A stretch of 64,000 nt of DNA from Synechococcales cyanobacterium VAR_4_metabat_354. Lineage in GTDB: Bacteria; Cyanobacteriota; Cyanobacteriia; Cyanobacteriales; Chamaesiphonaceae. Both the position numbers and the translations under genes were made by a program. The notes under the pieces are model-generated. The model was not told where the DNA came from and did not search any database. It saw nothing but the letters and a program-made list of their open reading frames with translations. The stretch lies in NCBI GenBank assembly GCA_031414775.1, contig JANOQI010000016.1, positions 160,001 to 224,000 on the forward strand, given 5' to 3'. Positions 32,725 through 47,279 of this stretch are shown piece after piece (the first letter of the stretch is position 1; every line of letters starts with the position of its first letter).

Positions 32725-33903
32725 ATGGATTTTATTTTTGGCTACATGAGATCGATCGGGATTAGTAATCCACAAGGAACCGGCTGGATGTCAGTGGTGC
32801 TGACTTTTGCGGTGGCTTGGGCGGTCACCTTTAGATTTATTCCTAACCTCCGTTCTTTTGCCCTGAAAGTTGGTTGGGCAGATAGCCCCAATGCTAGGCG
32901 GCTCAATAAAGAACCATTGCCCAATGCTGGTGGATTGGCGATCTATGCTGGTGTGATTGCCGCTTTGATTTTGGCGGCTTGTATCAGCCCCATGATCCTT
33001 CAGAAGATTCTGGTACAGATTTTGGCCATTCTGCTGGGAGCTTCAATCCTGGTATTGGTGGGTTTCATTGACGACCAGTTTGGCTTACCAGCGATGTTTC
33101 GGCTGATTGTCCAAATTTTGGCAGCTTTATTGTTAGTGGTCGTCGGCATCAAAGTTGGGGTGAACTTTGGTACTCCGATCGATGGCTCGCTATCCGTGCT
33201 GGTGACGGTATTTTGGGTGGTAGGCATCACCAATGCCGTCAACTTGATGGATGGGATGGACGGGTTGGCCGGGGGCATTAGTTTTATTGCCGGAATGAGT
33301 CTGCTAGCGGTATCAGCACAGTTTGAGGCTAGGGCAGCGGCCACCTTGATTCTATCGGCAGTATCGGGATCTTCCCTCGGTTTTCTCCGTCATAATTACC
33401 ACCCATCGCGAATTATTTTGGGTGATGCTGGGGCTTACTTTTTGGGCTATGTGTTGGCGGCTACCAGCATTTTGAGTAGTTCTAAGGTCTCTAGTATTTT
33501 TGCCTTGGTGCCCACCGCCATGTTTCTGCTGGTGCCGGTATTAGACACGACCCAAGTGATTGTGCGCCGCTTGCTGGCTGGTAAAAATCCGATGAGTACA
33601 CCGGGCAAAGACCATATTCATCATCGACTGTTGGCCTGGGGTTTTTCGCAGGGGCATTCGGCCGTAATTTTGTGGAGTGCCACGCTGGGTTCTAATCTAG
33701 TGGCCATGTGGTTACAAGGCACCCGGCTTAACGTAATCTTTACCACCGCCCTAGGGACGATGGGTCTGTTGGGGCTGACAGTGTGGCGAAGAATTCAGGC
33801 CACTAGCGCCGTTCAGAATAAAGCCGAACAGCTAGAACTATTGAACAAGACCGATATTGTGGAGCGAGAAAGACCTAAACCTGCCGCCGATTCGGAGTCC
33901 TAG
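32725..33903 (+). CDS. MraY/WecA-family polyprenyl-phosphate GlcNAc-1-P transferase
   Basis: GFIDD, NAVNLMDGMDGL, LGDAG, DHIHHRL. Confidence 0.9.
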   Translation: MDFIFGYMRSIGISNPQGTGWMSVVLTFAVAWAVTFRFIPNLRSFALKVGWADSPNARRLNKEPLPNAGGLAIYAGVIAALILAACISPMILQKILVQILAILLGASILVLVGFIDDQFGLPAMFRLIVQILAALLLVVVGIKVGVNFGTPIDGSLSVLVTVFWVVGITNAVNLMDGMDGLAGGISFIAGMSLLAVSAQFEARAAATLILSAVSGSSLGFLRHNYHPSRIILGDAGAYFLGYVLAATSILSSSKVSSIFALVPTAMFLLVPVLDTTQVIVRRLLAGKNPMSTPGKDHIHHRLLAWGFSQGHSAVILWSATLGSNLVAMWLQGTRLNVIFTTALGTMGLLGLTVWRRIQATSAVQNKAEQLELLNKTDIVERERPKPAADSES

Positions 33904-35552
33904 GTGTTTAATCGGCAAGCGATGGGCATCCGCCAACCAGTACCAAATGCTCGATCGGTAATTTTTAATCCTGGTGGCGCTTGACGACGCTTGAATTCTG
34001 CCCGTCGCAACAACTGGGTGATTTTTACAACCACCGCTGGCTCAAAATCCCGTTCGATTAACTCGGCTGTTGATCGATGCTCACAAATAATTTTTTCTAG
34101 TAAGTCATCTAAAACCTCGTAGGGTGGCAAAGAATCTTGATCGATCTGCCCCGGCTTTAATTCAGCGCTGGGGGGCTTGTCAATAATATTGATGGGAATA
34201 ATTTCCTGGTGGCGGTTCAGCCAGCGACACAGCGAATAAACGCGGGTTTTAGGCAGGTCGGCAATGACAGCTAAGCCGCCGTTCATATCGCCATAGAGAG
34301 TGCAGTAGCCCACCGCTATCTCGGATTTGTTGCCCGTGGACAAAAGCAAATGACCAAATTTGTTAGCGATCGCCATCAACAAATTACCCCGAATCCGCGA
34401 CTGGATATTTTCTTCAGCAATGCCAAATTCGGTATCTGCGAACAGAGGAGCCAGAGTTCGATCGAACCCCGTCATCAACTCTTGGATCGGTAGCTGAGTT
34501 GTCTGAATACCCAAATTCTGGCCGAGATCGATCGCGTCAGTAATAGAGTGATCGGAGCTGTAGGGCGACGGCATTAAGACTCCCAGCACTTGCTCGCCCC
34601 CCAGTGCTGCTGCCGCAATCGCGGCCACCAGTGCCGAATCAATGCCGCCGCTCAAGCCCAACAGCACTTTGCTGAATCCACATTTGTGAGTATAGTCCCG
34701 CACGCCCAACACCAATGCCTGCCAAATTTCTTCATCTTGGTGATCGATCGATCCCGCAATTACGCCCGGTTGTAAATCACCTTGCTGAAACTCCACTACC
34801 GATAAATCAGTTACAAAAGACTGGCTTCTAATAACCAGTTGGCCCTGTCGATCGAACCCCATGCTACCACCATCAAAAATCAAATCATCATTGGCACCCA
34901 CTTGGTTTACATACAAAATGGGTTGGCCATAGCGCTGTGCGGCATGTTGCAGCATCGCTTCCCGCACCTGCTGTTTTCCCACTGTATAGGGCGAAGCCGA
35001 AAGATTCACAATCAAATCTACCCCTTGAGCAGTTAACTCTTCGATCGGATTAGCTAAATACTGGCGCTTGCCCCAAAAATCCTGATCATTCCAAAGGTCT
35101 TCGCAGATAGTTACACCAATTTTGTAGTCCTGGAGTTGAAAATAATTACTACTCGCTCCCGCCTGGAAATAACGATTTTCATCAAAAACATCGTAGGTAG
35201 GGAGTAGTCGTTTGTGAAAAAGCTGCTGAACCTGGCCATTGAGCAGCAAAGCCGTACTGTTAAACAGTGGCTTACCAACATCGGGCTGCGAATTCTGGCT
35301 AGCAAATCCTACCAGTACAGCTAAACCCGTTGGTAGTTGAGTAGCCAACTGCGCCAATCGCTCCGCCATCGCTTTGATCAGGCCAGGATTTAGTAGCAAA
35401 TCACGCGGTGGATAGCCACAAAGTGATAACTCCGGAGTCAGCATCAAGTCTGCTTGTTGAGATTGAGCCTGTTTAGCCATTGCTAAAATCTGAGCCGCAT
35501 TACCAGCTAAGTCACCAACGATCGGATTAATTTGAGCTAATGCAATTTTCAT
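33900..35552 (-). CDS. nadE: glutamine-dependent NAD+ synthetase
   Basis: Nitrilase-like domain (PELSLCGY, ICEDLW) plus SGGIDS, NKSE, PPSAEL. Confidence 0.95.
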   Translation of the reverse strand: MKIALAQINPIVGDLAGNAAQILAMAKQAQSQQADLMLTPELSLCGYPPRDLLLNPGLIKAMAERLAQLATQLPTGLAVLVGFASQNSQPDVGKPLFNSTALLLNGQVQQLFHKRLLPTYDVFDENRYFQAGASSNYFQLQDYKIGVTICEDLWNDQDFWGKRQYLANPIEELTAQGVDLIVNLSASPYTVGKQQVREAMLQHAAQRYGQPILYVNQVGANDDLIFDGGSMGFDRQGQLVIRSQSFVTDLSVVEFQQGDLQPGVIAGSIDHQDEEIWQALVLGVRDYTHKCGFSKVLLGLSGGIDSALVAAIAAAALGGEQVLGVLMPSPYSSDHSITDAIDLGQNLGIQTTQLPIQELMTGFDRTLAPLFADTEFGIAEENIQSRIRGNLLMAIANKFGHLLLSTGNKSEIAVGYCTLYGDMNGGLAVIADLPKTRVYSLCRWLNRHQEIIPINIIDKPPSAELKPGQIDQDSLPPYEVLDDLLEKIICEHRSTAELIERDFEPAVVVKITQLLRRAEFKRRQAPPGLKITDRAFGTGWRMPIACRLNT

Positions 35553-35608
35553 GAAAATTACCAAAGAAAAATATTAATTTATAGAAAAAAACTATAAAAC
35601 TGAGTTAC

Positions 35609-36349
35609 TCAGACAAAAACCAAAGGTCGATCGCGCAACGGCTCAAACGCCACCGCATCAAACCGATACAAACTAGCCGGCCGACCACTCCCCCGCACCG
35701 CCTTCACCCCCGTCTCCACCAAAAAACCCAACTTCAGCAACCGATTCCGAAAATTAGAATAGTCCGAGAAATCTGCCCCCAAAATCGTCGTATACAGCTG
35801 GTAGATATCACTGAGCGTAAACGCCTCCGGCAGCACATCAAACGCGATCGGACTATACTCCAACTTATTGCGTAACCGCCGTTCCCCATAAGCCAAAATC
35901 TCCCGATGATCAAATGCCAAATCTGGCAGACTATTCACTGGATACCAAGCAATGCCCCCCACCCCCGTCGCAATCAACTCCGCTTCCTCAAACCGCACCA
36001 AGGCAAAATAGCTCACCGATAAATAGCGCACCCCAAAACTATCGATCGATTCCCGCGGATCCCGCCCCGGTCCCCCGAAACTATAGAGCTGCTCCAAATA
36101 TAAATTCTTGACCTTAATTTTCTCGGCCAGAATGCGATCAGCAGCGGACTCTAAAGATTCCCCACGGCGCACTAGAGTTCCGGGCAAACTCCACTGTCCC
36201 AAAAAAGGTTCCTCTCCGCGCATCACCAACAACACTAACAATCGATTTTGAATGGTATCCACCGAGAAAATGACATTATCGACCCCGACCTTAAAGTCGG
36301 CTAGAGCCTCGGCATCTCCAGATTTTTTTGAGCTTCGTTCCGCAACCAT
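35609..36349 (-). CDS. nrtR: NrtR, Nudix-related transcriptional regulator
   Basis: Degenerate Nudix box, LEQLYSF, LAFDH, wHTH tail SNFR...GRPASLYRF; located in NAD operon. Confidence 0.9.
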   Translation of the reverse strand: MVAERSSKKSGDAEALADFKVGVDNVIFSVDTIQNRLLVLLVMRGEEPFLGQWSLPGTLVRRGESLESAADRILAEKIKVKNLYLEQLYSFGGPGRDPRESIDSFGVRYLSVSYFALVRFEEAELIATGVGGIAWYPVNSLPDLAFDHREILAYGERRLRNKLEYSPIAFDVLPEAFTLSDIYQLYTTILGADFSDYSNFRNRLLKLGFLVETGVKAVRGSGRPASLYRFDAVAFEPLRDRPLVFV

Positions 36350-36356
36350 AAGGCAA

Positions 36357-36935
36357 TCAATTTTTCTTAGTTTTCAAATGATAGAGATCCAGTCGATCGA
36401 TATAGGCAGCCACTGCTGGCGTTAAGCCATATAGATCGTGGTGCTGGCGAATGGCCGTTGAAGAAACTGGCGGGGTCTTCAGATCAGTAACCAACTGCAC
36501 CCGTCCCCCTAACTCAGCCAAACGGCGCAATGATTCTGGCTGAATCGACCAACCGGGACGGGGCACCACCAATAACTCCACTTGCCGAATTAGTTCAATG
36601 CCACCTTGCCAGCGCTCGATCTGACTCACCAAATCGCCCCCAATCACCAAGCTAAATTCAGCTGTTGGCCACAACTGCTGGGCAAAATTCAGAGTTTTGT
36701 AGGTGTAGCGGTGGCTGAGTTCTTGATAAACCCGCACTTGGGGATGGTTCAAGTCGGCTACCAATAATTCCAGCATCCTGGCGCGCTGTCCCAAAGTAGC
36801 CTCATGGACTTTGTCAGGATTGTCGGCTGCCCACACCGCCACCAGGGGGAAACTTTCGCTTAACCAATGCATGATTTTTTGGTGAGCCAGAGTTGGCGGA
36901 TCGGCACTAGTGCCAAATAGGGCTATTTTCATCAT
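36357..36935 (-). CDS. nadD: nicotinate-nucleotide adenylyltransferase
   Basis: FGTSADPPTLAH, IGGDL, VSSTAIR. Confidence 0.88.
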   Translation of the reverse strand: MMKIALFGTSADPPTLAHQKIMHWLSESFPLVAVWAADNPDKVHEATLGQRARMLELLVADLNHPQVRVYQELSHRYTYKTLNFAQQLWPTAEFSLVIGGDLVSQIERWQGGIELIRQVELLVVPRPGWSIQPESLRRLAELGGRVQLVTDLKTPPVSSTAIRQHHDLYGLTPAVAAYIDRLDLYHLKTKKN

Positions 36936-38287
36936 TGCAGCTCCTGCATGACAGCGACCAAGTCTGGCCTGATTTTTGCTGCCACCTCCAGTGGTCGATC
37001 AATATCCCGCACCTCAGCTGGCAAACTGGCTACATTTTGTTGAGTTCGATCGCGAATTTGCATCAGACTTTCCGATGGGATAATTTGCTGGCCATTGGCC
37101 ATGACCAACTTCAATAATCCCGGTTGCTGATGATCGATTAAACCCAAGCTGTCACTTTGCCACTGACCCTGGCTCAACTGGCGATAAATTTGCTTTTTGC
37201 CGGGATAGGTTTGCTTGCCCGTGGCTTTTTTCATTGTCGGATGACCATCAATCTCCACTAATTTATAGACCCCATTGACTGGTTGACCAGTGACCAGCTT
37301 TGTTCCTAATCCATAACCGTCGATTTTAGCCCCAGCTGATCGCAGTTTAGCAATTTCCCATTCATCCAAATCGCCACTGGCGAAGATTTTAGTATCCGGT
37401 AAAAGTTGGTTGATCAGCTGCGATAGAGCCACCAAATCACCAGAATCTAGACGAATACCAGGGACTTTCATCTCACCAGCATCAACTTTGACGGCCAGTT
37501 GCTGGACAGCAGCGATCGGATCGAAAGTATCAATTAACAAGGGCGATTGGGGAAAATACTTCTGAAAAGTAGTAAATGCTTGTTGCTCGCTGCCACTAGT
37601 AGCAGCGATCGCCATCACCAATGAATGCGCCATCGTGCCACTGGGCTTGACTCCTAACTGAAGAGCGGCCAACACATTAGAAGTCGTATCCAAACCCGCT
37701 GCGATCGATGCCCGGGCAGCCCACAATGCTGCCTGGGGGCTAAAAGCTCGCCTAGTACCAAATTCTAAGAGCGTCGCCTCGGCTCCGGCTACATCCCGCA
37801 GCCGAGCAGCTCGCGTTGCAATTAGGGTTTGATAATTAATCGTATTAAGTAAAAAAGTCTCCACCAGCTGCGCCTGCCAGAGCGGTGCTTCCACCCGCAG
37901 GATCGGTTCATGGGCAAAGATGGCGGTGCCTTCGGATACCGCCCACACATCCCCGGTGAACTTTGCTGCCGCCAATAATTGCCAGAAGGTGGTGGGGGCG
38001 TGCTCAAAAACTTCTAGCTGTTGCAAGGCGGTAATTTGGGTGGCGGTAAACCGCAAATTTCGCAAATATTCCAGAGCCTGAGTTAGCCCCATCGCAATTA
38101 AATAACCAAAGGATTTTGGTAGTTTTCTCACGAATAGCTCAAAACTGGCTGGTCGTTGATCGAGCTGTTCACCCACATAGCAAGCGGTCATGGTGAGCTG
38201 ATAAAGATCGGTCAGCAAGCTATAGTCAGACATCTGTGGCAATGTAGTCAATGCTAAAGGAGCCACTGGTTGGTGGGTAATAGTCAT
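36932..38287 (-). CDS. pncB: nicotinate phosphoribosyltransferase
   Basis: LLTDLYQLTM, EFGTRR, GTMAHS, IRLDSGD, GVYKLVE. Confidence 0.95.
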   Translation of the reverse strand: MTITHQPVAPLALTTLPQMSDYSLLTDLYQLTMTACYVGEQLDQRPASFELFVRKLPKSFGYLIAMGLTQALEYLRNLRFTATQITALQQLEVFEHAPTTFWQLLAAAKFTGDVWAVSEGTAIFAHEPILRVEAPLWQAQLVETFLLNTINYQTLIATRAARLRDVAGAEATLLEFGTRRAFSPQAALWAARASIAAGLDTTSNVLAALQLGVKPSGTMAHSLVMAIAATSGSEQQAFTTFQKYFPQSPLLIDTFDPIAAVQQLAVKVDAGEMKVPGIRLDSGDLVALSQLINQLLPDTKIFASGDLDEWEIAKLRSAGAKIDGYGLGTKLVTGQPVNGVYKLVEIDGHPTMKKATGKQTYPGKKQIYRQLSQGQWQSDSLGLIDHQQPGLLKLVMANGQQIIPSESLMQIRDRTQQNVASLPAEVRDIDRPLEVAAKIRPDLVAVMQELQ

Positions 38288-38458: not shown

Positions 38459-39586
38459 ATGGTTTTTGTCCTCAATTCCGACAATATTTTTGATTACTTG
38501 GATCGGGCACAGCTGGGAATACCCGATCGATCAGCTGCTACCGTAAAATTAATTGGTGCTAAAAACTTTAACCTGCTGGTACAATCGCCCGGAGCCGATC
38601 CTTTGCTGGTCAAGCAAGAAACAATTAGTGCCGATGGTCAGCAAGCGGGGGAACTGTTTACAGAATGGAAACTGCAACAGCTTATTCCCCAAATTCCAGA
38701 ACTGCGATCGATCGCCAGCTTCATGCCCGAAATTTTGCACTGCGATCCCGATAACTCGATTGTGATTAATCGTTTCTTTGACCAGTACCAAGACCTGGCC
38801 GATTATTACAACCACCAATCAACATTTCCGTCCGAGCTTGCTACCATTCTGGGTCAGCGATTGGGATTAGTTCATCGGTTGTCGTTTGCTCGATCAGACT
38901 ATCAGCAGCAGATCGAGACAGCTATTGGTGACCGAAAGTTAATGGCACATCGCATCGTGCAGCGCTTAGCACGTTTATCGCCTGGTCTGCTGGGTATGAT
39001 GCCGATCGAATGCCTCCAGTTTTTTAAGCTCTACCAGCAATATCCCAGTCTCGGGGCGGCGATGCAGCAGCTGGCAGAGAGTAGTGTGGCTTGTTGCCTG
39101 GTACACAATGACCTGAAGCTGAACAACGTGTTGGTGTGGCCAGAGTCCAGTGATGCCAAAATTCGGTTGATTGATTGGGAACGAGCGGCCTGGGGCGATC
39201 CCGCCGGAGATTTGGGAATGCTGATTGCTAGCTATTTAGAGTTGTGGCTAGAAAGTATGGTGGTGAGCAATGAACTGAGTATTTCCGAATCTTTGCAACT
39301 GGCTACTGTGCCGTTGGAGCTACTGCAACCGTCATTACTGGCGCTCATTGTGAGTTATCTGAATACTTTTCCCCAAATTATTGATACTCAACCGCAATAT
39401 CTGCAACGGGTACTGCAATGTACGGGAATGTCGTTAATTTATCGGATTGAAGCAATTATGGAATTCGATCGATACTTTGGCAACCAGGGGATCATGATGT
39501 TGCAAGTTGCCAAGCAACTATTGTGTAACCCTGCTGATTTTATGAATACTGTATTTGGTGAAAATGCTCAGGAGTTATTGCAATAA
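38459..39586 (+). CDS. APH-family phosphotransferase (LanK-like peptide kinase)
   Basis: KNFNLL, VKQE, HNDLKLNN catalytic loop, IDWE, WGDPAGDLG. Confidence 0.88.
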   Translation: MVFVLNSDNIFDYLDRAQLGIPDRSAATVKLIGAKNFNLLVQSPGADPLLVKQETISADGQQAGELFTEWKLQQLIPQIPELRSIASFMPEILHCDPDNSIVINRFFDQYQDLADYYNHQSTFPSELATILGQRLGLVHRLSFARSDYQQQIETAIGDRKLMAHRIVQRLARLSPGLLGMMPIECLQFFKLYQQYPSLGAAMQQLAESSVACCLVHNDLKLNNVLVWPESSDAKIRLIDWERAAWGDPAGDLGMLIASYLELWLESMVVSNELSISESLQLATVPLELLQPSLLALIVSYLNTFPQIIDTQPQYLQRVLQCTGMSLIYRIEAIMEFDRYFGNQGIMMLQVAKQLLCNPADFMNTVFGENAQELLQ

Positions 39587-40650
39587 TGCTAGATGCCGCC
39601 ACTACTTTCATGCAAATGGCTGAGACTGTTTTACAGGAAATAGCCGATGTAATTACAATCGATTCAAAATTAACTATTCATCACCCTAGTTATCCAGAAT
39701 GGTTAGTGCCAGAGTTAGTTAGTAATCGACTGCAAGATAGTCCCAGAGAAATTCAGGCGAAGTTCTTGTGTGCTCAGCTCCAAGCCTATCTTCACTGCAT
39801 TTATTTCAGTCGTTCTCTATTGCCTTTGGCAGCTTCAGCTAGTGCGGCAACTCCGCCCCTGGTTATCCACAACAGTACGATCAAGGGCATTGATACCGCG
39901 TTTTATGCTCAGATCGATCGAGCGAATTGTAGCCAAGGTTATTATGATCCAGACTGGATTATTGAGGGTGATGAAGATGATGGCATGGTGGCGGTAGTCA
40001 AAGAAGGTCTGCGTTTGCATGTGTGGCCACCCTACATCTATCCTGATTATCAAACCCTGGCCGAGGGCGATCGAGCCGCGATCATTATGCCCAAAAATCT
40101 CCTGACGATCGATCGATATATCGCGATCAGTAATTATGGTCGAGTGCGACAGCAACCCATCATTAATCTTTACTTTAGTTGTCCGCCAGATCCGGCGATC
40201 GCGGTTATTACTCAAATTACTACCGCCTTAAACTCTCTGGAACTGCCTTTTGAACTGCAAGTGCAGCTAGCACCTAGTAAATATCAGCAGACCGATTCTT
40301 TAATTCTTCAGTTAGCTGTCGCCGACTACCCCACCGCCCAACCAGCTCTGAGCAAAATCCATGGCCAATATCGATCGCAATTTTACGATCAAACTCCCAG
40401 CCTCACTCAACCCGTCGCCACTGGTGTCGGTCTGTCTACAGCAACCACTGACCAATATGGAGTCTCGCAATTATGGCAATTAGTTGCTCAGGCGCTAGCC
40501 GAATCTTGGCTGCTCCAAACTGTGGATACTAAGACGAAGATCGATCGGATCTGGCAAGCATTGGAGCAAGCCGATATTAGGTCCTCGGTGGAGATTGCTC
40601 ACGAACAGCAACAGCTCACGTCAAATTTAGATAGTTATCAGTCGTGGTAA
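39586..40650 (+). CDS. HopA1-family (LanY-like) protein, divergent
   Basis: TAATG overlap with kinase; FY..I..AN.SQGYYDPDW, AVVKEGL.LH, MPKN, LYF, LN...PF, PxLT..V..GVGL layout. Confidence 0.75.
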   Translation: MLDAATTFMQMAETVLQEIADVITIDSKLTIHHPSYPEWLVPELVSNRLQDSPREIQAKFLCAQLQAYLHCIYFSRSLLPLAASASAATPPLVIHNSTIKGIDTAFYAQIDRANCSQGYYDPDWIIEGDEDDGMVAVVKEGLRLHVWPPYIYPDYQTLAEGDRAAIIMPKNLLTIDRYIAISNYGRVRQQPIINLYFSCPPDPAIAVITQITTALNSLELPFELQVQLAPSKYQQTDSLILQLAVADYPTAQPALSKIHGQYRSQFYDQTPSLTQPVATGVGLSTATTDQYGVSQLWQLVAQALAESWLLQTVDTKTKIDRIWQALEQADIRSSVEIAHEQQQLTSNLDSYQSW

Positions 40651-40796
40651 TGGCAGCTTTTTTCATGCAAATGGCTGATACTTTTTTCAGATAAATAGCT
40701 GATGAAAATACAATTTATTTCCTGTAGTGATTTTGGAAAACAACAATAGTCCACGTCAAATTTAGATAGCTATAGTCGTGATTAATGGCAACTTTG
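40651..40796 (+). pseudogene. collapsed remnant of a second hopA1-like copy
   Basis: 40660-40721 resembles 39605-39665 (gene start); 40727-40796 resembles 40591-40660 (gene end). Confidence 0.7.
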
Positions 40797-41036
40797 TATA
40801 AAATATTGTTATGTTGGCTGCACAACGCCTAGACACTTCATGTAAATTAAAATAGTCTCAAATACTTGGTTAGTAAAGTTTACAGCTATTAGTTGCTAAC
40901 TGAATAAAATAAAATATTGACCACCCACTTTACAAATATAGTGATGTGACATTAAGCTATCAAATATAGTAACTAATAACTTTCTCATAAGGAATTAGTT
41001 CTCTTTACGAATTTATGCATCTACTGGAGTTTTAAT

Positions 41037-41300
41037 ATGTCTAGAATTCAACTGACCAATCTTCCATCTGCTGGCAGCACTTTATTTCAAGGCAGCGAAA
41101 GTTTTCTAACTGAACTACAATCCACTGAAGCTCATGCTATTTATGGCGGCAAAGGTCATGGTAAAGGCAGTGGCAGTGGCAAAGGCCATGGCGGCAGCAA
41201 AAAAGGTAGTAAAGGTAGTGGCCGTGGTTATGGTGGACATGGACACGGCGGGCCTTGCGCACCCGGTTGTCCTCCTTACACACCACCAGTTTGTCATTAA
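41037..41300 (+). CDS. double-glycine RiPP precursor peptide
   Basis: RBS ggag; 38-aa leader LFQGSESFLTEL...IYGG; 49-aa core KGHGKGSGSG...PCAPGCPPYTPPVCH. Confidence 0.85.
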   Translation: MSRIQLTNLPSAGSTLFQGSESFLTELQSTEAHAIYGGKGHGKGSGSGKGHGGSKKGSKGSGRGYGGHGHGGPCAPGCPPYTPPVCH

Positions 41301-41378
41301 TTAATGTGATAAAACTTGATTTCCACCTGTTTAGCATTCATTACTTCATACTGAAGTGATTTAAGACAATGCTGAAAA

Positions 41379-41414
41379 GTAAGCCTATCCAACTTTTTGG
41401 ATAAGCTTATTTTT
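41379..41414 (+). terminator. terminator between precursor and convergent export operon
   Basis: taagcctatcca...tggataagctta followed by a T-run. Confidence 0.6.
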
Positions 41415-41542
41415 ATGAGCGATAAGAAAATTGTGAAGCTCAAAACTTTAAGATTTCTTAAAAAAATTAGTTAACTTTGAATGTAATTTCTACTAAAATT
41501 GGCAGGAGTACCGATCAGGGTTTATGGTGAAAAATTCAGGTA

Positions 41543-42283
41543 TCACAGGCCGTAACTGAAATCCAGATGCTCTCGCTGGTGCTCAATTTGCTGTTGTAGC
41601 CAACCTTGAAACAGATCCCACATAATTTGTTCGCGGATAGACGGGCTTAATTGTGGTGGCACAATTTCTGTAACCAGAATTAAGTGACTATTTTTAGTGA
41701 CCCTGATCGGCGGTAATAGTTGGGGCGGTTGGGTCGCAAATACCACCGCCGAAATTTCTGGTGGCATCTGGCGACGTTTTACCAAGCCCCGATAGCCCCC
41801 CTTTTGCTGCTGCACACCTGTCGAATAATCATGAGCCACTTCCCCAAAGCTCATATCGCCTTCTTGAATCGCATAAAATAGCTCGATCGCCAGATTGTAA
41901 TCATTGACCACTACCTCTGAAATTATAGCTCCCCCATAATCCAAAATATGCTGATGAAAAAATGGCTCAACTTTGTCAGCAAACATTTGCTGGGCAACTC
42001 TGTGGGTTAGGAGATTAGTGACCACTAGCTGCTCAAAATCATCCATTGAAAGTGTTCGATCTGCTAACCATTTTTCAGTAGCGGCAATCGTGTCTAACTT
42101 ATTAGCTTCTCGGAACTGATCAGCACCAACTTGTAATTCAGCGTCAGTAATCTCGATCCCTAGACGCTGGGCATGGTCTTCTAAAATTCTCTGTTGAAGA
42201 ATGCCAGTAATCAGCTCCGGAACCTTACCAGTAATTTTGATTTGATGCAGTAAGTCGAGACTAGTGATTTTGATAGTAGGCAT
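41543..42283 (-). CDS. parvulin/PpiC-type peptidylprolyl isomerase associated with peptide export
   Basis: ELQ..AD.FR, A.ELFYAIQEG..F..VA..YS, GGYRG, PEISAVVF. Confidence 0.82.
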   Translation of the reverse strand: MPTIKITSLDLLHQIKITGKVPELITGILQQRILEDHAQRLGIEITDAELQVGADQFREANKLDTIAATEKWLADRTLSMDDFEQLVVTNLLTHRVAQQMFADKVEPFFHQHILDYGGAIISEVVVNDYNLAIELFYAIQEGDMSFGEVAHDYSTGVQQQKGGYRGLVKRRQMPPEISAVVFATQPPQLLPPIRVTKNSHLILVTEIVPPQLSPSIREQIMWDLFQGWLQQQIEHQREHLDFSYGL

Positions 42284-42327
42284 AAGGCTGGATTCAACAA
42301 GTATTGAGGCTACATCAATAGCATCAA

Positions 42328-44505
42328 TTAGTTAGACTTTAGTTTCGTAAAAGGTGCCGTAATCAAGTCGATAATCCGGCGTTTGCGGATAATAATTTCG
42401 GCAGTGGCCGGTTGCCCAGACTTAAATGGTAGACACTCACCCCGGTACTTAATGCACGACTGTGCCAACGCCACCCGCACTTCGTAGTTAACCACATTCC
42501 CCAATGGTGAAGCAACCAACTTAGAATTAGGTGAAATCCAAATCAGCTTGCCATTGACAATCCCATAGCTCTCAAAAGGGAATTCCTCAAACTTCAACTT
42601 CACATTTTTGTTAGTAGTTGTACGCAACGATTCACTTTGGGAGGCCGGAATATCACCCTTGAAGATCAAGTCCATTGCTTGATTCGTCTGAGGTGCAATT
42701 TCGGCAATTAGTTGCTTTGGCTGCACTACCGAACCCTCCCGCGTAATCGGCAGTTCAAAAATTCGGCCATCCACATCAGCCCGAATTGTATATTTGGCCA
42801 GCTGCCGATTGAGAGTTGTGCTCAGATTTTTCGATTGTTCAATGTCGGTACGTAGCATCGTCACTTGGGATTGGACTTCTTTTAGTTGTTGTTCGCTTTT
42901 GCCCACAGCTAATTTACCGCCCTGCACCAAGCTTTGCAGACTCCGTTGTTGTTCTACCAACCGCAATTGGGCTTGGGTAATATCCGATCGCAACTGACCG
43001 ACCGTCCGCTGATAAGTACCCTGTTGCTCGGTTAAGCGCAGCTTAGACTGCTGGACATCGGCTTGCACTTGCTGAACTAACTTACTGTAACTATCTTGCT
43101 GCTCGCGGTAGCGGAGCTTGGCTTGCTGTAAGTTAGCCTCGGCTTGCAGTTTGGCTTGATTACGCTCTTTGGCTAGGCTCTCGATTTCCCGGCTTTTCAC
43201 CTCCGAAATCGCCCCGGACTTATAAAGCTGATTAAAACGACGCGCTTCGGCCTGGGCATCACGCAGCCGATTAACTGCTACCTGATAGGCCGCAGTACTA
43301 TCCATAATCGTTCGCTGAGCTTGGTTGATTTGGGTAATCTTCTCTTGCTTTTGCAGGTTGAGTCCACCCCGGCGATCTTGAACGGTTTGTTCTGCTTGGT
43401 TTAGTTGTGCTTTTTTCTCACCATCTTGAGTGTTGTAGCTATTCCTCAGATTAGTAAGATTTTGTTCAGCCTGAGCAATTTGGGCTTGTTTTTCGAGAAG
43501 CTGGGCTTGGTTCTGTTGCTGCTGAGTACTGATCGCGATCGATAGCTGGTTGTTCATGAGCAGGAGCTGATTCAAGCGCTGCTGCTGGCCTTCTAGCTTG
43601 ACCTGATTTTGCTGCACCTGATCCCGAATATTTTTGGCATCTAGCTCCATCAGCACCTGGCCTTTTTTGACAGCATCCCCTTTTTTGACAAGCACCTTTG
43701 TAACCGTTACACTGCCATCCACATCGGCCTCCCGCTTAATCGTATCCCCAATCACTTCTAATCTTCCTTTGGCGGTACCAATTTCATCCATCTGAAAGAA
43801 ACTCGCCCACGGAATAAAAACTCCCACAAACGCCAGCAGAAAATAAAATAGACCTCTTGTCCAAGGCAACGGCACCCCATCAATAACTTCTTTGGCCGCA
43901 GTTGACCAATCAGTCAACTGCGTCAGGCCGGTTGGAACTAAACCAAAGCTAGTTTCGGAATTGAACACAGCCAAATCTTGGGAAGGAGTCGGTGCTAAAT
44001 CCTGGGAAGAAGTTGGTGCTAAATCCTCACTGGGATGTGCTTCGACTGGGATAATTAGCTCGCTGGCGGTGGGTTCTTGAAATGCTAAATTGTCGGAACC
44101 GACTAAGGCTTTCTCTAATAAACCTGGGCCAAATTGAGTATACCCAAGTTGTACAGATCGAATAATTTCCACAATGATGGAGTTGATATTGTGTTTGGTA
44201 ACATAGCCACTTACCCCACTTTGTAAAGATTTTTGGACATACTCAGCATCATCGTAACTACTAATAATAATTACTTTGGTATCTGGAAAGTCGTGATGAA
44301 TTAACTTGGATACTTCCAGTCCGTTCATACCGGGCATTTCAATATCCAGCAGCACAATATCTGGCAAAAATATTTGCACCTGCTCCAGAGCACTAAAGCC
44401 ATCCGATGCGGTGCCAATTACCCGAAAATCCGGTTGTTGAGTTAAAATTGCTTGCAGATTTGCCCGCACCATTACTTGGTCATCTACAATCAGAATTTCA
44501 ATCAT
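42328..44505 (-). CDS. response-regulator receiver fused to HlyD-family membrane fusion protein
   Basis: ILIVDD, LLDIEMPGMNG, GYVTK; then TM, lipoyl-like VKKGDAVKKGQ, long coiled coil, FPFESYG, GQPATAEII. Confidence 0.9.
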   Translation of the reverse strand: MIEILIVDDQVMVRANLQAILTQQPDFRVIGTASDGFSALEQVQIFLPDIVLLDIEMPGMNGLEVSKLIHHDFPDTKVIIISSYDDAEYVQKSLQSGVSGYVTKHNINSIIVEIIRSVQLGYTQFGPGLLEKALVGSDNLAFQEPTASELIIPVEAHPSEDLAPTSSQDLAPTPSQDLAVFNSETSFGLVPTGLTQLTDWSTAAKEVIDGVPLPWTRGLFYFLLAFVGVFIPWASFFQMDEIGTAKGRLEVIGDTIKREADVDGSVTVTKVLVKKGDAVKKGQVLMELDAKNIRDQVQQNQVKLEGQQQRLNQLLLMNNQLSIAISTQQQQNQAQLLEKQAQIAQAEQNLTNLRNSYNTQDGEKKAQLNQAEQTVQDRRGGLNLQKQEKITQINQAQRTIMDSTAAYQVAVNRLRDAQAEARRFNQLYKSGAISEVKSREIESLAKERNQAKLQAEANLQQAKLRYREQQDSYSKLVQQVQADVQQSKLRLTEQQGTYQRTVGQLRSDITQAQLRLVEQQRSLQSLVQGGKLAVGKSEQQLKEVQSQVTMLRTDIEQSKNLSTTLNRQLAKYTIRADVDGRIFELPITREGSVVQPKQLIAEIAPQTNQAMDLIFKGDIPASQSESLRTTTNKNVKLKFEEFPFESYGIVNGKLIWISPNSKLVASPLGNVVNYEVRVALAQSCIKYRGECLPFKSGQPATAEIIIRKRRIIDLITAPFTKLKSN
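43970..44031 (-). repeat. 24-nt tandem repeat in REC-HlyD linker (SxDLAPT)
   Basis: SEDLAPTS-SQDLAPTP-SQDLA. Confidence 0.75.
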
Positions 44506-44507
44506 AG

Positions 44508-47279
44508 TTATTCGCCGATAATTGTCATTTGCTGTTCATTCAGGTGAAAATATTGACCCCGCCTCGCCATCAGCTCTCGATGATTACCGCTTTCAATCAA
44601 AATCCCTTGGTCTAAGACCAAAATTAAGTCAGCATTTCGCACTGTTGATAACCGATGGGCAATAATTAGGGTACTGCGTCCTTGGCAGATGTTTTCTAAG
44701 TTTTTCTGAATAATTCGCTCCGATTCGGTATCCAAACTGCTGGTCGCTTCATCAAAAACCAACAGTCTGGGATTGCCCAATAATGCCCTGGCAATCGCTA
44801 GCCGTTGTCGCTGTCCACCGGATAACATGCCACCGCCTTCCCCAATTTGGGTCTCATAGCCCATCGGCATCTTCCGAATAAATTCATCGGCACCAGCCAG
44901 TAGCGCCGCCTGTTTCACTTCTTTGAGGTTGGTACGGGCATGACCCAGGGAAATATTGTCCAGGATGCTACCGCTGAACAAAAAAGTGTTTTGATCAACC
45001 ACGCCAATTTGCGATCGGAGAGAATGGAGAGCAATATTAGATAGTTCTCTGCCGTCGATTAAAATTTTACCAGTAGTAGGCGAATAGAGTCCTAGCAACA
45101 GTTTAGAGATGGTGGTTTTGCCAGAACCACTGCGTCCCACCAAGGCCACCGTCTGGCCAGGTTTAATCTCAAAGCTGAGATTTTCTAAGGTATTATTTTC
45201 GGTGTGCGGATTGTAGCGAAAAGTCACTCGATCGAACACTACCTGACCGCGCAGTTTGCCGATCCGCTGGCGATTATCGTTGTGGAGATTTTCTTCCGGG
45301 GGAGACTCAATCACATCACAAATCCGTTCGATCGCGATCGTTACTTCCTGAAATTGATTCCATAAACCCGCCAACCGCTTGAAAGGACTAATCACATTCG
45401 CAGAGAGCATATTAAAAGCAAACATTTGACCAATACTAAACTCACCACTGATTACCAAGGTCGCCCCTAACCACAGTAACGCTACACCGCTGAAGGACTC
45501 TAATGCCGAACTAGCAGCTTGCAGCTTAATTCCAAACATCTTGCTGCGATATTGCTGCTTCACTTCTTGGTTGAGTAGCTCTTCCCACCGCCAGCGCACA
45601 CTCTTTTCCACAGACATGGATTTGACAGTGCGTACTCCGGTTAGGGCTTCAATCAAATAGCTATTCTCTTCGGCAGTGGCCGTAAATACTTCGCGCGAGA
45701 TTTTTTTCAGAAAAGGGGTGGCGGCCACATTCAAAATCAAGAAGGACGGAATCGTTACCAGTACCAAGAGTGCTAATTTCCAGCTATAGACAAACATCAG
45801 CGATACATAAACAAATACCGACATGATGTCCAGAATCAAACCCAAGGTTTCACCAGTAATAAAACTGCGAATCTTGTGATTTTCTTGCATCCGCGAGGTG
45901 ATATCGCCCACCTGCCTGGTGTCAAAATAATTGAGTGGCAGACTAAAAGCATGACGGATAAAGCCAACAATCATGGCTGTATCGATACGGATGGCCGTGA
46001 TATAAATCAAGTATTGGCGGAGACCTCCCATCATGATTTGAAAGATCGCCATGATGAGTAGTCCGATCGAGAAAGTCGTAAGGCTGTCAGCAGATTTATG
46101 AATGATGGCGCGATCTAAGATGAGCTGGGTAAAAATTGGGGAAATTAAACCAAAAAGTTGCAGAACGATCGAAGCAACGAAAATCTCACTAATCACCACC
46201 CGGTGGGGTTTAACTAGTTCTAGCAACTGCCAAAAAGTATCAGACTCTTCCTCCGTATTTTTCGAGAGCGCTACTGTCGGTTCTAGCAGTAGGCAATAGC
46301 CCGTCCAATCTTTAATAAATTCTGCCGCAGTCAACCGCCTTTGACCCACTGCCGGATCGCCGACAATCACGCCTTTCTTATTGATTTCATAGATCACTAA
46401 GTAATGGTTGCCACGCCAGTGAGCGATCGCTGGCAGTTTTTGTTGAGACAATTGATCGAGACTGGCTTTAACTGGCCGACTATTAAAGCCCAAGCTCTCC
46501 GCCGCCGTAGCCAAAGTTTTTAGGGAAGAGCCATCGCGGCTAATTACGGCCATCTCCCGCACCCGGTTGATTTTAAAAACCTTGCCCCAGTAACGGCCAA
46601 TCATCACGATACAAGCCGCTCCACAGTCTGCCGCACTCTGCTGAGCATAGAAGGGGTAGCTGGCCATGGTGCGCTGCCACCACTGCCCCAGTTGCTGTAC
46701 TGGCGAAGGAAAATAGATTTGGGATGTCTTCAGTCGAGAATCCTGATGATTACCTCTGGTATTGGTGAAGCTACCAAGCGTCATGGGCATCACGAATCGA
46801 TCGGCTGTTACCGGCGGAACGCTGATCTGGGAAATGTTGGTGACCGAGGCGATTTCTACCGGCTGGAGTGGACTTTGGGCTTGAGCCAGCAAATGAGACT
46901 GGATGTTGGGCAACTTCTGCCACAGCGTTTGCAGGGTCTCGGCAGTTAGCCGCGCGACGATCGCCTGAGTTTGTCCCTTGACCAGCGCTGCTTTGGCTAC
47001 ATAGACCAAACCGTCATTAGCAAATAGAGTGCTAGATCCAAAAGTATTATTTGCTTTGATAACAGCTAGTTTTTCACCGGCTTCGCTAAAGAGACGGATT
47101 TTGCCAGCTAAGACTAAATGTAGACCAGCCGGACTATTCTGAGAATGCCAAAACACTTGACCTGGTTCTACTCTAACCAACTCTACTCGCTGATTCAGCC
47201 ACTCCCAGTCAGGAGGAGTCAAGTATTCACCAAGCACGGCTTGCCATTGTTCAGCCGAAATAGTGGAAGAATTAACCAT
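44508..47279 (-). CDS. peptidase-containing ABC transporter (cNMP-like + C39 + TMD + ATPase)
   Basis: QQSAADCGAAC, HWRGNHY, GDPA (Cys/His/Asp present); GRSGSGKT, LSGGQRQR, DEATSSLD. Confidence 0.93.
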   Translation of the reverse strand: MVNSSTISAEQWQAVLGEYLTPPDWEWLNQRVELVRVEPGQVFWHSQNSPAGLHLVLAGKIRLFSEAGEKLAVIKANNTFGSSTLFANDGLVYVAKAALVKGQTQAIVARLTAETLQTLWQKLPNIQSHLLAQAQSPLQPVEIASVTNISQISVPPVTADRFVMPMTLGSFTNTRGNHQDSRLKTSQIYFPSPVQQLGQWWQRTMASYPFYAQQSAADCGAACIVMIGRYWGKVFKINRVREMAVISRDGSSLKTLATAAESLGFNSRPVKASLDQLSQQKLPAIAHWRGNHYLVIYEINKKGVIVGDPAVGQRRLTAAEFIKDWTGYCLLLEPTVALSKNTEEESDTFWQLLELVKPHRVVISEIFVASIVLQLFGLISPIFTQLILDRAIIHKSADSLTTFSIGLLIMAIFQIMMGGLRQYLIYITAIRIDTAMIVGFIRHAFSLPLNYFDTRQVGDITSRMQENHKIRSFITGETLGLILDIMSVFVYVSLMFVYSWKLALLVLVTIPSFLILNVAATPFLKKISREVFTATAEENSYLIEALTGVRTVKSMSVEKSVRWRWEELLNQEVKQQYRSKMFGIKLQAASSALESFSGVALLWLGATLVISGEFSIGQMFAFNMLSANVISPFKRLAGLWNQFQEVTIAIERICDVIESPPEENLHNDNRQRIGKLRGQVVFDRVTFRYNPHTENNTLENLSFEIKPGQTVALVGRSGSGKTTISKLLLGLYSPTTGKILIDGRELSNIALHSLRSQIGVVDQNTFLFSGSILDNISLGHARTNLKEVKQAALLAGADEFIRKMPMGYETQIGEGGGMLSGGQRQRLAIARALLGNPRLLVFDEATSSLDTESERIIQKNLENICQGRSTLIIAHRLSTVRNADLILVLDQGILIESGNHRELMARRGQYFHLNEQQMTIIGE

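Follow-up and report, generated by a model that had tools for sequence, protein, structure and literature searches.

The kinase/HopA1-like gene pair, its precursor and its exporter

A compact gene cluster of the kind that makes peptides synthesized on ribosomes and modified after translation (RiPPs) lies at positions 38459-47279 of the stretch of DNA analysed here, which we call the window: 64,000 nucleotides (nt) of contig JANOQI010000016.1 (positions 160,001 to 224,000) from Synechococcales cyanobacterium VAR_4_metabat_354. A preliminary description of this DNA, made without database searches, had proposed a self-contained pathway in which a kinase and a HopA1-like protein modify a peptide that leaves the cell through a dedicated exporter. 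All six genes were found where this description had placed them, and searches with hidden Markov models for APH, HopA1, Peptidase_C39, HlyD and Rotamase all gave matches. A look at synteny, which it had also proposed, gave this result: the nearest named records are metagenome-assembled genomes of Synechococcales, and they share the gene order.

The plus strand encodes an APH-fold peptide kinase of the LanK type (38459..39586; 375 amino acids (aa); Pfam APH PF01636, 40.9 bits, 2.6e-10) followed by a LanY/HopA1-like protein (39586..40650; 354 aa; PF17914, 96.4 bits). The stop codon of the first gene and the start codon of the second share one base (TAATG), in line with the coupling proposed. Behind the pair lies a decayed mini-copy of the HopA1-like gene on the same strand (40661..40773; start part 40661-40719 80% identical, end part 40739-40773 86%), by its sequence probably a duplication scar. 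The precursor gene (41037-41300, plus strand, 87 aa) has a ribosome-binding site of its own, a Shine-Dalgarno-like GGAG at 41026..41029, 7 nt before the ATG. In this respect the preliminary description was right, while the terminator that it had added is no more than plausible: a hairpin between the convergent units (~41375..41414), preceded by a run of A and followed by a run of T, could act bidirectionally. The 66-nt segment folds with -20.2 kcal/mol, a value without shuffle control, and a consensus terminator scan did not list the hairpin.

The precursor consists of a 38-aa leader with the double-glycine (GG) end IYGG (41037..41150) and a predicted 49-aa core (41151..41300 with the stop codon); cleavage after GG is expected from the biology of C39 peptidases. 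The core contains 18 Gly, 6 Lys, 1 Arg, 5 His and 5 Ser, and then a Pro/Cys tail, with 3 Cys in the core, and each of the five Ser is at most two residues away from a Lys. Unmodified, it would have a mass of 4581 Da, an isoelectric point of 9.9 and a charge of about +7. Across 33 homologs the leader is conserved and the cores are variable, most of them Gly/Lys/Ser-rich with a Pro/Cys tail, and the leader profile retrieves precursors at kinase/HopA1-like (K/Y) loci across the order. Compared by eye, the leader is of the same type as the Network 1 rows of a published dataset (PMC8153245). Family 1A of that dataset spans 183 cyanobacterial clusters with 570 peptides, which are conserved in their GG leaders and variable in their cores, and type-B LanA denotes the same kind of cluster (PMC9486802). 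The window locus shares with them the GG leader, the variable core, the adjacent phosphotransferase and HopA1-like genes and the exporter. The layout, presented in the preliminary description as unusual, is therefore that of a published family.

The convergent operon on the minus strand encodes a parvulin/SurA-like peptidyl-prolyl isomerase (PPIase; 41543..42283; Rotamase, TIGR04500-like in NCBIfam but below cut-off), a REC-HlyD fusion (42328..44505; Response_reg and HlyD_3) and an exporter with cNMP, Peptidase_C39 and ABC domains (44508..47279). In the exporter we found Q213, the expected Cys/His/Asp triad of the C39 domain (C219, H292 and D308), Walker A, LSGGQ, E844 and H875; cNMP, C39, transmembrane and nucleotide-binding domains together make it a peptidase-containing transporter of the long type. 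The receiver domain of the fusion holds the phospho-acceptor D54 and K104 and may gate export. Long-type transporters with HlyD and SurA-like proteins define groups I/II of the cyanobacterial bacteriocin clusters (PMC3140520), and in Synechococcus elongatus the GG peptides EbfG1-4, which act in biofilm formation, are exported by the C39 transporter PteB (PMC4997328). Both systems resemble the window locus in the cNMP-C39-ABC exporter, HlyD, PPIase and GG peptides. The window locus stands apart from them by the receiver domain of its HlyD and by the kinase pair that accompanies the exporter, and the likeness to EbfG drawn here is one of function.

An intact kinase next to a HopA1-like protein without lyase residues

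Clusters for class V lanthipeptides combine an APH-type LanK kinase with its catalytic residues, a LanY lyase with a catalytic Arg/Lys/Arg/Tyr set, and cyclisation genes, either LanC or, for AviCys, LanD/LanX; their products carry (methyl)lanthionine. The window kinase has all catalytic residues of a LanK (K52, H216, D218, K220, N223, D239 and E241), which are invariant in 34/34 aligned homologs. Its ratio of nonsynonymous to synonymous substitution rates (dN/dS, Nei-Gojobori) is 0.076 against the related locus L001, and its NCBIfam LxmK score of 76.6 bits lies under the equivalog cut-off of 315.

The HopA1-like protein, in contrast, has lost 4/4 of the mapped lyase residues: the multiple alignment places N194, Q225, Q235 and Q242 where CaoY has R187, K219, R229 and Y236. 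This mapping was routed to LxmY through a paralog on contig C62 of the same genome and not through the CaoY sequence itself. The paralog aligns to LxmY (9DK1_B, E 6e-7), a hand count puts the Arg, Lys, Arg and Tyr of LxmY at the CaoY spacing of 32/10/7, and the family profile falls into the identical register with LxmY for the last three sites. Searches of Protein Data Bank (PDB) sequences with the window lyase and with alignment A2 gave no match, and we draw the link to LxmY because of the paralog, the wider profile and the fold. The structure model (predicted value of the local distance difference test (pLDDT) 74.7) has LxmY as its best fold match (9DK1/2/3 chain B, E 4e-13, template modelling score 0.53), at ~14% identity in the structural alignment. 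The match to the type III effector HopA1 spans only ~160 columns, and the ESM Atlas returned a HopA1 label only. We rejected an effector of plant pathogens as an identity for this protein, since the gene is coupled to a kinase gene in a cyanobacterial peptide cluster, has the N-terminal domains of LanY and matches LxmY best in fold.

What such losses would do can be read from the actinobacterial enzyme (PMC9486802). The K219A mutation in CaoY abolished elimination and left only phosphorylated peptide, R187A left almost nothing else, and R229Q slowed elimination; K219 has a conserved partner in Y236. Since the four LanY residues are absent, dehydration by the window pair is therefore unlikely. 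The residue loss is observed, and by analogy with the CaoY mutants the protein, which we call a pseudo-lyase, probably no longer eliminates phosphate. The split dehydratase of the preliminary description thus stands as to its LanK/LanY ancestry and falls as to a working dehydratase.

The loss is shared by relatives. In a 24-protein clade from within the window's family, the K219 column holds Ala (15), Gln (8) or Gly (1), R187 is kept in 2 proteins, R229 in 22 and Y236 in none, and the four old sites carry 7, 3, 2 and 8 residue types. Among the 22 closest homologs R187 occurs in none, and the Lys of the K219 position is missing from the aligned column region in 21. The 51 full-length homologs of the intact class, which is defined by those residues, retain all four. 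A second degenerate group, from outside the window's family, lacks R187 throughout and has retained K219 in 9/10, and inactivity is less sure there.

Several K/Y pairs are built differently. At one locus (L042:7754-10255) the kinase and a degenerate lyase are fused in one 834-aa frame that adjoins a weakly matching Arg-rich GG peptide, and several representatives of 760-830 aa may be similar fusions. Three further loci (L036, L110 and L101) have two tandem pairs each; one of these is intact, and in the other either kinase and lyase or just the lyase is degenerate.

Despite its lost residues, the pseudo-lyase is under purifying selection, with a dN/dS of 0.148 against L001; for degenerate lyases of five other clade pairs the range was 0.10-0.23, and for three intact pairs it was 0.13-0.22. 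That the gene is a relic in decay or an artefact of assembly, and the locus dying, would fit the lowest PF17914 score among the full-length cyanobacterial matches listed, the long branches in a lyase tree made by a quick method and the duplication scar behind the gene. Against this stand the dN/dS value, a frame that is open in 22 homologs with identities as low as 35%, and contigs from four other runs, all of a single study, that span the gene and have no indel listed within it. On these grounds we rejected the pseudogene, and the relic reading as a whole is largely refuted and exceedingly improbable.

Modelling suggests what the protein may be kept for. The kinase/pseudo-lyase complex scored 0.79 compared with 0.02 for the best control, on a scale whose mark was reached by 116/157 solved pairs and 2/215 mismatched pairs; between runs 94% of contacts agreed, and partner pLDDT was at least 81. 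The modelled interface (kinase 172-194 and 268-283, lyase 44-66 and 134-176) is LxmKY-like and includes none of the four old lyase sites. The model supports kinase binding by the pseudo-lyase without showing it. Each on its own, LxmK and LxmY behave poorly, and together they form a stable heterodimer (PMC12141560); CaoK is likewise poorly soluble without its partner (PMC9486802).

The cyclisation genes of class V are missing too. Among 48 window open reading frames (ORFs) scanned with Pfam, which include most of those of at least 150 aa, with petC/petA among the few unscanned, there is no LanC and no flavoprotein decarboxylase, and the sole methyltransferase is a tRNA m1G methyltransferase, in agreement with the preliminary description. 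We therefore rejected class V lanthipeptide identity for this locus, at which both lyase residues and cyclisation genes are missing; the expectation of a RiPP-type locus with a product unlike class V holds. The window further encodes phycobilisome linkers and the orange carotenoid protein. A complete NAD salvage operon at window positions 33900-38287 (NAPRTase, NadD-like protein, NrtR-type Nudix regulator and NAD synthase) is divergent from the kinase gene; this synteny is kept in L001 and not in L002, and the operon is probably unrelated to the peptide locus.

Lyase state and core type across cyanobacterial loci

PF17914 matches were present in 61/401 sampled genomes of the phylum. Querying genome contigs with a single protein led to 2 related loci, and metagenome contigs searched with alignment A2 contained no related locus. 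Our first set comprised 72 loci with a lyase, 59 of them with a precursor and 13 without; three loci holding both lyase types were scored as intact. The summed core fraction of Gly, Ser, Lys, Asn and Arg, a measure picked after the first cores were seen, was 0.56-0.86 at 28 degenerate loci compared with 0.16-0.40 at 31 intact loci, and Gly/Ser/Lys/Arg-repeat cores occurred at 28/28 and 0/31 of them, respectively. The precursor adjoins the pair at 28/39 degenerate loci, every degenerate-locus core holds Ser or Thr, many in Lys/Arg-Ser repeats, and the kinase motifs were found at 29/29 degenerate loci. Full-length REC-HlyD fusions occur in 19/39 family genomes, 18 of which have a degenerate clade lyase.

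A second set of 40 loci outside the family was chosen from matches to the precursor profile and to the lyase, not at random and in part by core likeness. It had a lyase at 30 loci and, at 27 of these, also a precursor. Here, 7/8 degenerate loci had values of 0.75-0.95 and cores that repeat Arg-Ser or Lys-Ser, compared with 0/19 intact loci at 0.5 or above. Median net charges of kinase and lyase differed little between the lyase classes (-13/-12 vs -10/-9), and we draw no support from them.

In a kinase tree of 72 rows, made by a quick method, the 28 loci with degenerate lyase and polar core form two clades, each with SH-aLRT support of 99. The association thus rests on 2 independent pairs, for which a sign test is not significant, and a single origin was not rejected (p-AU 0.10; 40-row subset, simpler model). 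We regard the association of lyase state and core type as a clade property, not as proof of co-evolution.

Near-pure Arg-Ser, Lys-Ser or Arg-Thr repeat cores occur at five loci (L163, L179, L166, L118 and L170), of which four adjoin a degenerate lyase and the last lies on a 1-kb contig. Such near-pure Arg-Ser-type cores are reminiscent of the RS domains of eukaryotes.

A predicted phosphorylate-and-export pathway

We consider it rather probable that the locus encodes a phosphorylate-and-export pathway whose product is a zwitterionic phospho-Ser/Lys peptide and not a class V lanthipeptide. Judged from the sequence, the precursor would be translated from its own ribosome-binding site. The kinase, by its intact motifs and by analogy with CaoK, would bind the leader and use ATP to phosphorylate Ser of the Lys/Gly-Ser repeats, while the pseudo-lyase, retained as the kinase's structural subunit as in the model, would leave the phosphate in place. 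The C39-ABC transporter is predicted to cut after GG, and the core would leave through REC-HlyD and TolC, which is encoded far from the locus. Its Pro-rich tail, the Cys of which would be free or in disulfides, may be a target of the parvulin. An unstructured, zwitterionic phospho-Ser/Lys peptide of ~4.6 kDa would result. As to origin, basic cores would be poor substrates of a CaoY-type lyase, because a Lys beside phospho-Ser (E-1K) hindered elimination by CaoY (PMC9486802), and selection on the lyase site may have relaxed.

Besides the small number of independent origins and the choice of measure and second set, several observations weigh against this pathway. The inactivity of the lyase is extrapolated from a distant actinobacterial enzyme, and the complex score may reflect recall of the solved LxmKY structure. 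At one locus (L198) the lyase is degenerate and the core an acidic Thr/Pro repeat; this lyase is nested among intact relatives, and here activity was perhaps lost a third time, recently, and together with another type of substrate. Several clade cores hold just 1-3 Ser, and at L172 a core with one Ser goes with a kinase motif in which Lys has changed to Thr. Six loci have polar His/Ser/Gly GG peptides and no K/Y pair in the fetched stretch, so such peptides need no modification in cis, and eight K/Y pairs lacking K219 (L112-L117, L038 and L040) have no precursor within 13-17 kb.

These last observations would be accommodated if the core were exported essentially unmodified, as a cationic Gly-rich antimicrobial or matrix peptide, with the kinase pair acting on another substrate or having little effect. 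EbfG1-4 would be a precedent for GG peptides sent out by a C39 transporter (PMC4997328). The strong purifying selection on a kinase with invariant catalytic residues, the adjacency of precursor and pair at most degenerate loci and the Ser or Thr in all of their cores speak against it, and we hold unmodified export to be unlikely.

The polar orphan loci (L164, L168, L169, L171, L174 and L175, from family f6 genomes) encode His/Ser/Gly/Tyr-rich peptides, and the exporter was also unseen in the fetched stretch. The group of orphan pairs without K219 further includes L199, is mostly from family f6, and likewise showed no exporter in 13-17 kb; the neighbours of one pair (L115) are menaquinone genes and DUF815/TerB_C genes. 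The orphan peptides of f6 are possible trans substrates of the orphan pairs, or else metal-binding peptides.

The genome around the locus, 99.96% complete, bears on a further alternative. On contig C62 lies a paralogous K/Y cluster that has an exporter of its own and encodes five GG precursors and a LanM-like protein. There (L003:11346-16640), an intact kinase and lyase adjoin a 972-aa LanM-like protein (DUF4135 and LANC_like), the only LANC_like match of the genome, in which the Zn-ligand motifs of the cyclase are present. Its dehydratase-domain motifs seem eroded next to those of LanM, and the pair may serve as a source of dehydration for a cyclase-only LanM. Lan-type matches also occur at L094 and L098, and two Flavoprotein matches of the host genome lie on contigs C36 and C54. 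Two further exporters of this C39 type are encoded elsewhere in the genome, and the third C39/HlyD/PPIase set, on contig C46 (L004:1108-8825), comes with a helix-turn-helix gene, four GG peptides and no kinase pair; two of these peptides are near-identical, with Lys/Cys/Tyr-rich starts. TolC is encoded on contig C31. The locus, described beforehand as self-contained, is so in its layout and not within its genome.

With an intact lyase and a LanC domain on C62, which also count against a phosphopeptide as the final product, the core might still be dehydrated in trans, or with the help of its own Lys/Arg in a substrate-assisted way, and the dehydroalanine cross-linked to Cys or Lys, perhaps with help from the C62 LanC. 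The cores carry exactly the basic residues that the enzyme has lost, the window core offers its Cys and Ser, and the second clade mostly keeps K219. However, nine genomes of at least 95% completeness (G402, G408, G409, G410, G290, G412, G416, G417 and G429) contain a single match, which is degenerate, and the subtype therefore needs no intact partner. Furthermore, Lys next to phospho-Ser disfavours elimination in CaoY, the Cys sit in the Pro-rich tail, separate from the repeats with Ser, and not all cores contain Cys. We regard a dehydrated product as distinctly unlikely.

Conservation of the lyase domain itself points in yet another direction. The idea that conservation is confined to the kinase-binding half of the protein has weak support at best: conservation is just a little lower in the lyase domain than in the N-terminal part (ratio 0.99 vs 1.12), a further point against a purely structural subunit. 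R229, kept in nearly the whole clade, may mean that the old pocket still has some use, and there are new invariant residues, such as E223 in 23/23 of the closest subclade. The pseudo-lyase might then have a new role at the old site (phosphopeptide binding or hand-over, phosphate hydrolysis or transfer), or the kinase might target Tyr, His or Lys, in either case giving a product other than plain phospho-Ser. The old sites vary freely, which is a better fit to loss than to a new catalytic set, and the locus encodes no other enzyme; we judge such a role to be quite improbable.

For the phosphopeptide of the favoured pathway, we tentatively put first a role in surface, matrix or mineral binding, by analogy with EbfG and silaffins. 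Nearly as likely in our view is a role as a cationic effector whose charge would be masked by phosphate until after export; a signal or a carrier of metal or phosphate would account for what is left. Silaffins of diatoms are Lys/Ser peptides that become zwitterionic through phosphorylation (PMC4557024). The analogy is functional only and implies no homology to these eukaryotic peptides, which moreover need polyamine-modified Lys, for which the window locus has no enzyme.

The closest biochemically studied relatives, CaoK/CaoY and LxmK/LxmY (PDB 9DK1-3), share with the window locus the adjacent APH kinase and HopA1-like genes, the fold, the modelled heterodimer interface and a leader-bearing precursor. 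The window locus differs from them in lacking the mapped lyase residues, LanD, LanX, a methyltransferase and LanC, and in having a GG leader, C39 export and a basic low-complexity core. A 2025 review knows class V products only from actinobacteria (PMC12328550). Phosphorylated natural products are rare; phosphorylated RiPPs include phospeptin (made by EmbM), paeninodin, pseudomycoidin, salivaricin 10 and phosphorylated cyanobactins (PMC12639078). They resemble the predicted window peptide in that phosphate is the final modification, and phospeptin also in that a lanthipeptide-type enzyme stops at phosphorylation. Their enzymes, in contrast, are LanM-like, HPrK-like or PKc-like, and the available text of that source describes neither a LanK with a pseudo-LanY nor a Lys/Arg-Ser repeat.

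In PMC8153245, Family 1A appears as putative dehydratase clusters with unknown products, and its available parts do not note the split into intact/hydrophobic and degenerate/basic-Ser types; nor do those of PMC7794033 and PMC13060382 contain anything on a pseudo-lyase/basic-core subtype. The literature covered, mostly outside subscription journals, held no report of inactive LanY proteins or of phosphorylated products from these clusters, nor did it characterise any product of the large K/Y family of cyanobacteria. What is new is thus the pseudo-lyase/basic-Ser-core subtype; architecture and layout had been published. For strains in culture this core type is already in print, as Lys/Arg-Ser cores appear in the PMC8153245 dataset for Chamaesiphon minutus PCC 6605, Stanieria PCC 7437, Pleurocapsa CCALA 161, Scytonema PCC 7110 and Cyanobium PCC 7001.

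By a rule of four residues, the K/Y family falls into pathways that probably dehydrate and pathways that probably phosphorylate, and degenerate loci should therefore not carry a lanthipeptide-cluster annotation. A broader view, which we find rather unlikely, is that a class V dehydratase was turned, perhaps twice, into a machine for poly-phosphorylation, and that (Lys/Arg-Ser)n phosphopeptides act as adhesives or as a mineral-nucleating matrix. They would be a counterpart of silaffins and phosphoserine glues and a new class of phospho-RiPPs in at least six of the cyanobacterial families sampled. Phosphoserine-bearing adhesives are reportedly found in aquatic organisms, again a functional analogy only, and Chamaesiphon is said to form biofilms on rock. 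If the proposed pathway is true, a leader-directed kinase that poly-phosphorylates Ser of basic repeats would be a useful tool for recombinant phosphopeptide materials, and its product would be a candidate for surface attachment or mineral binding by surface-dwelling cyanobacteria.

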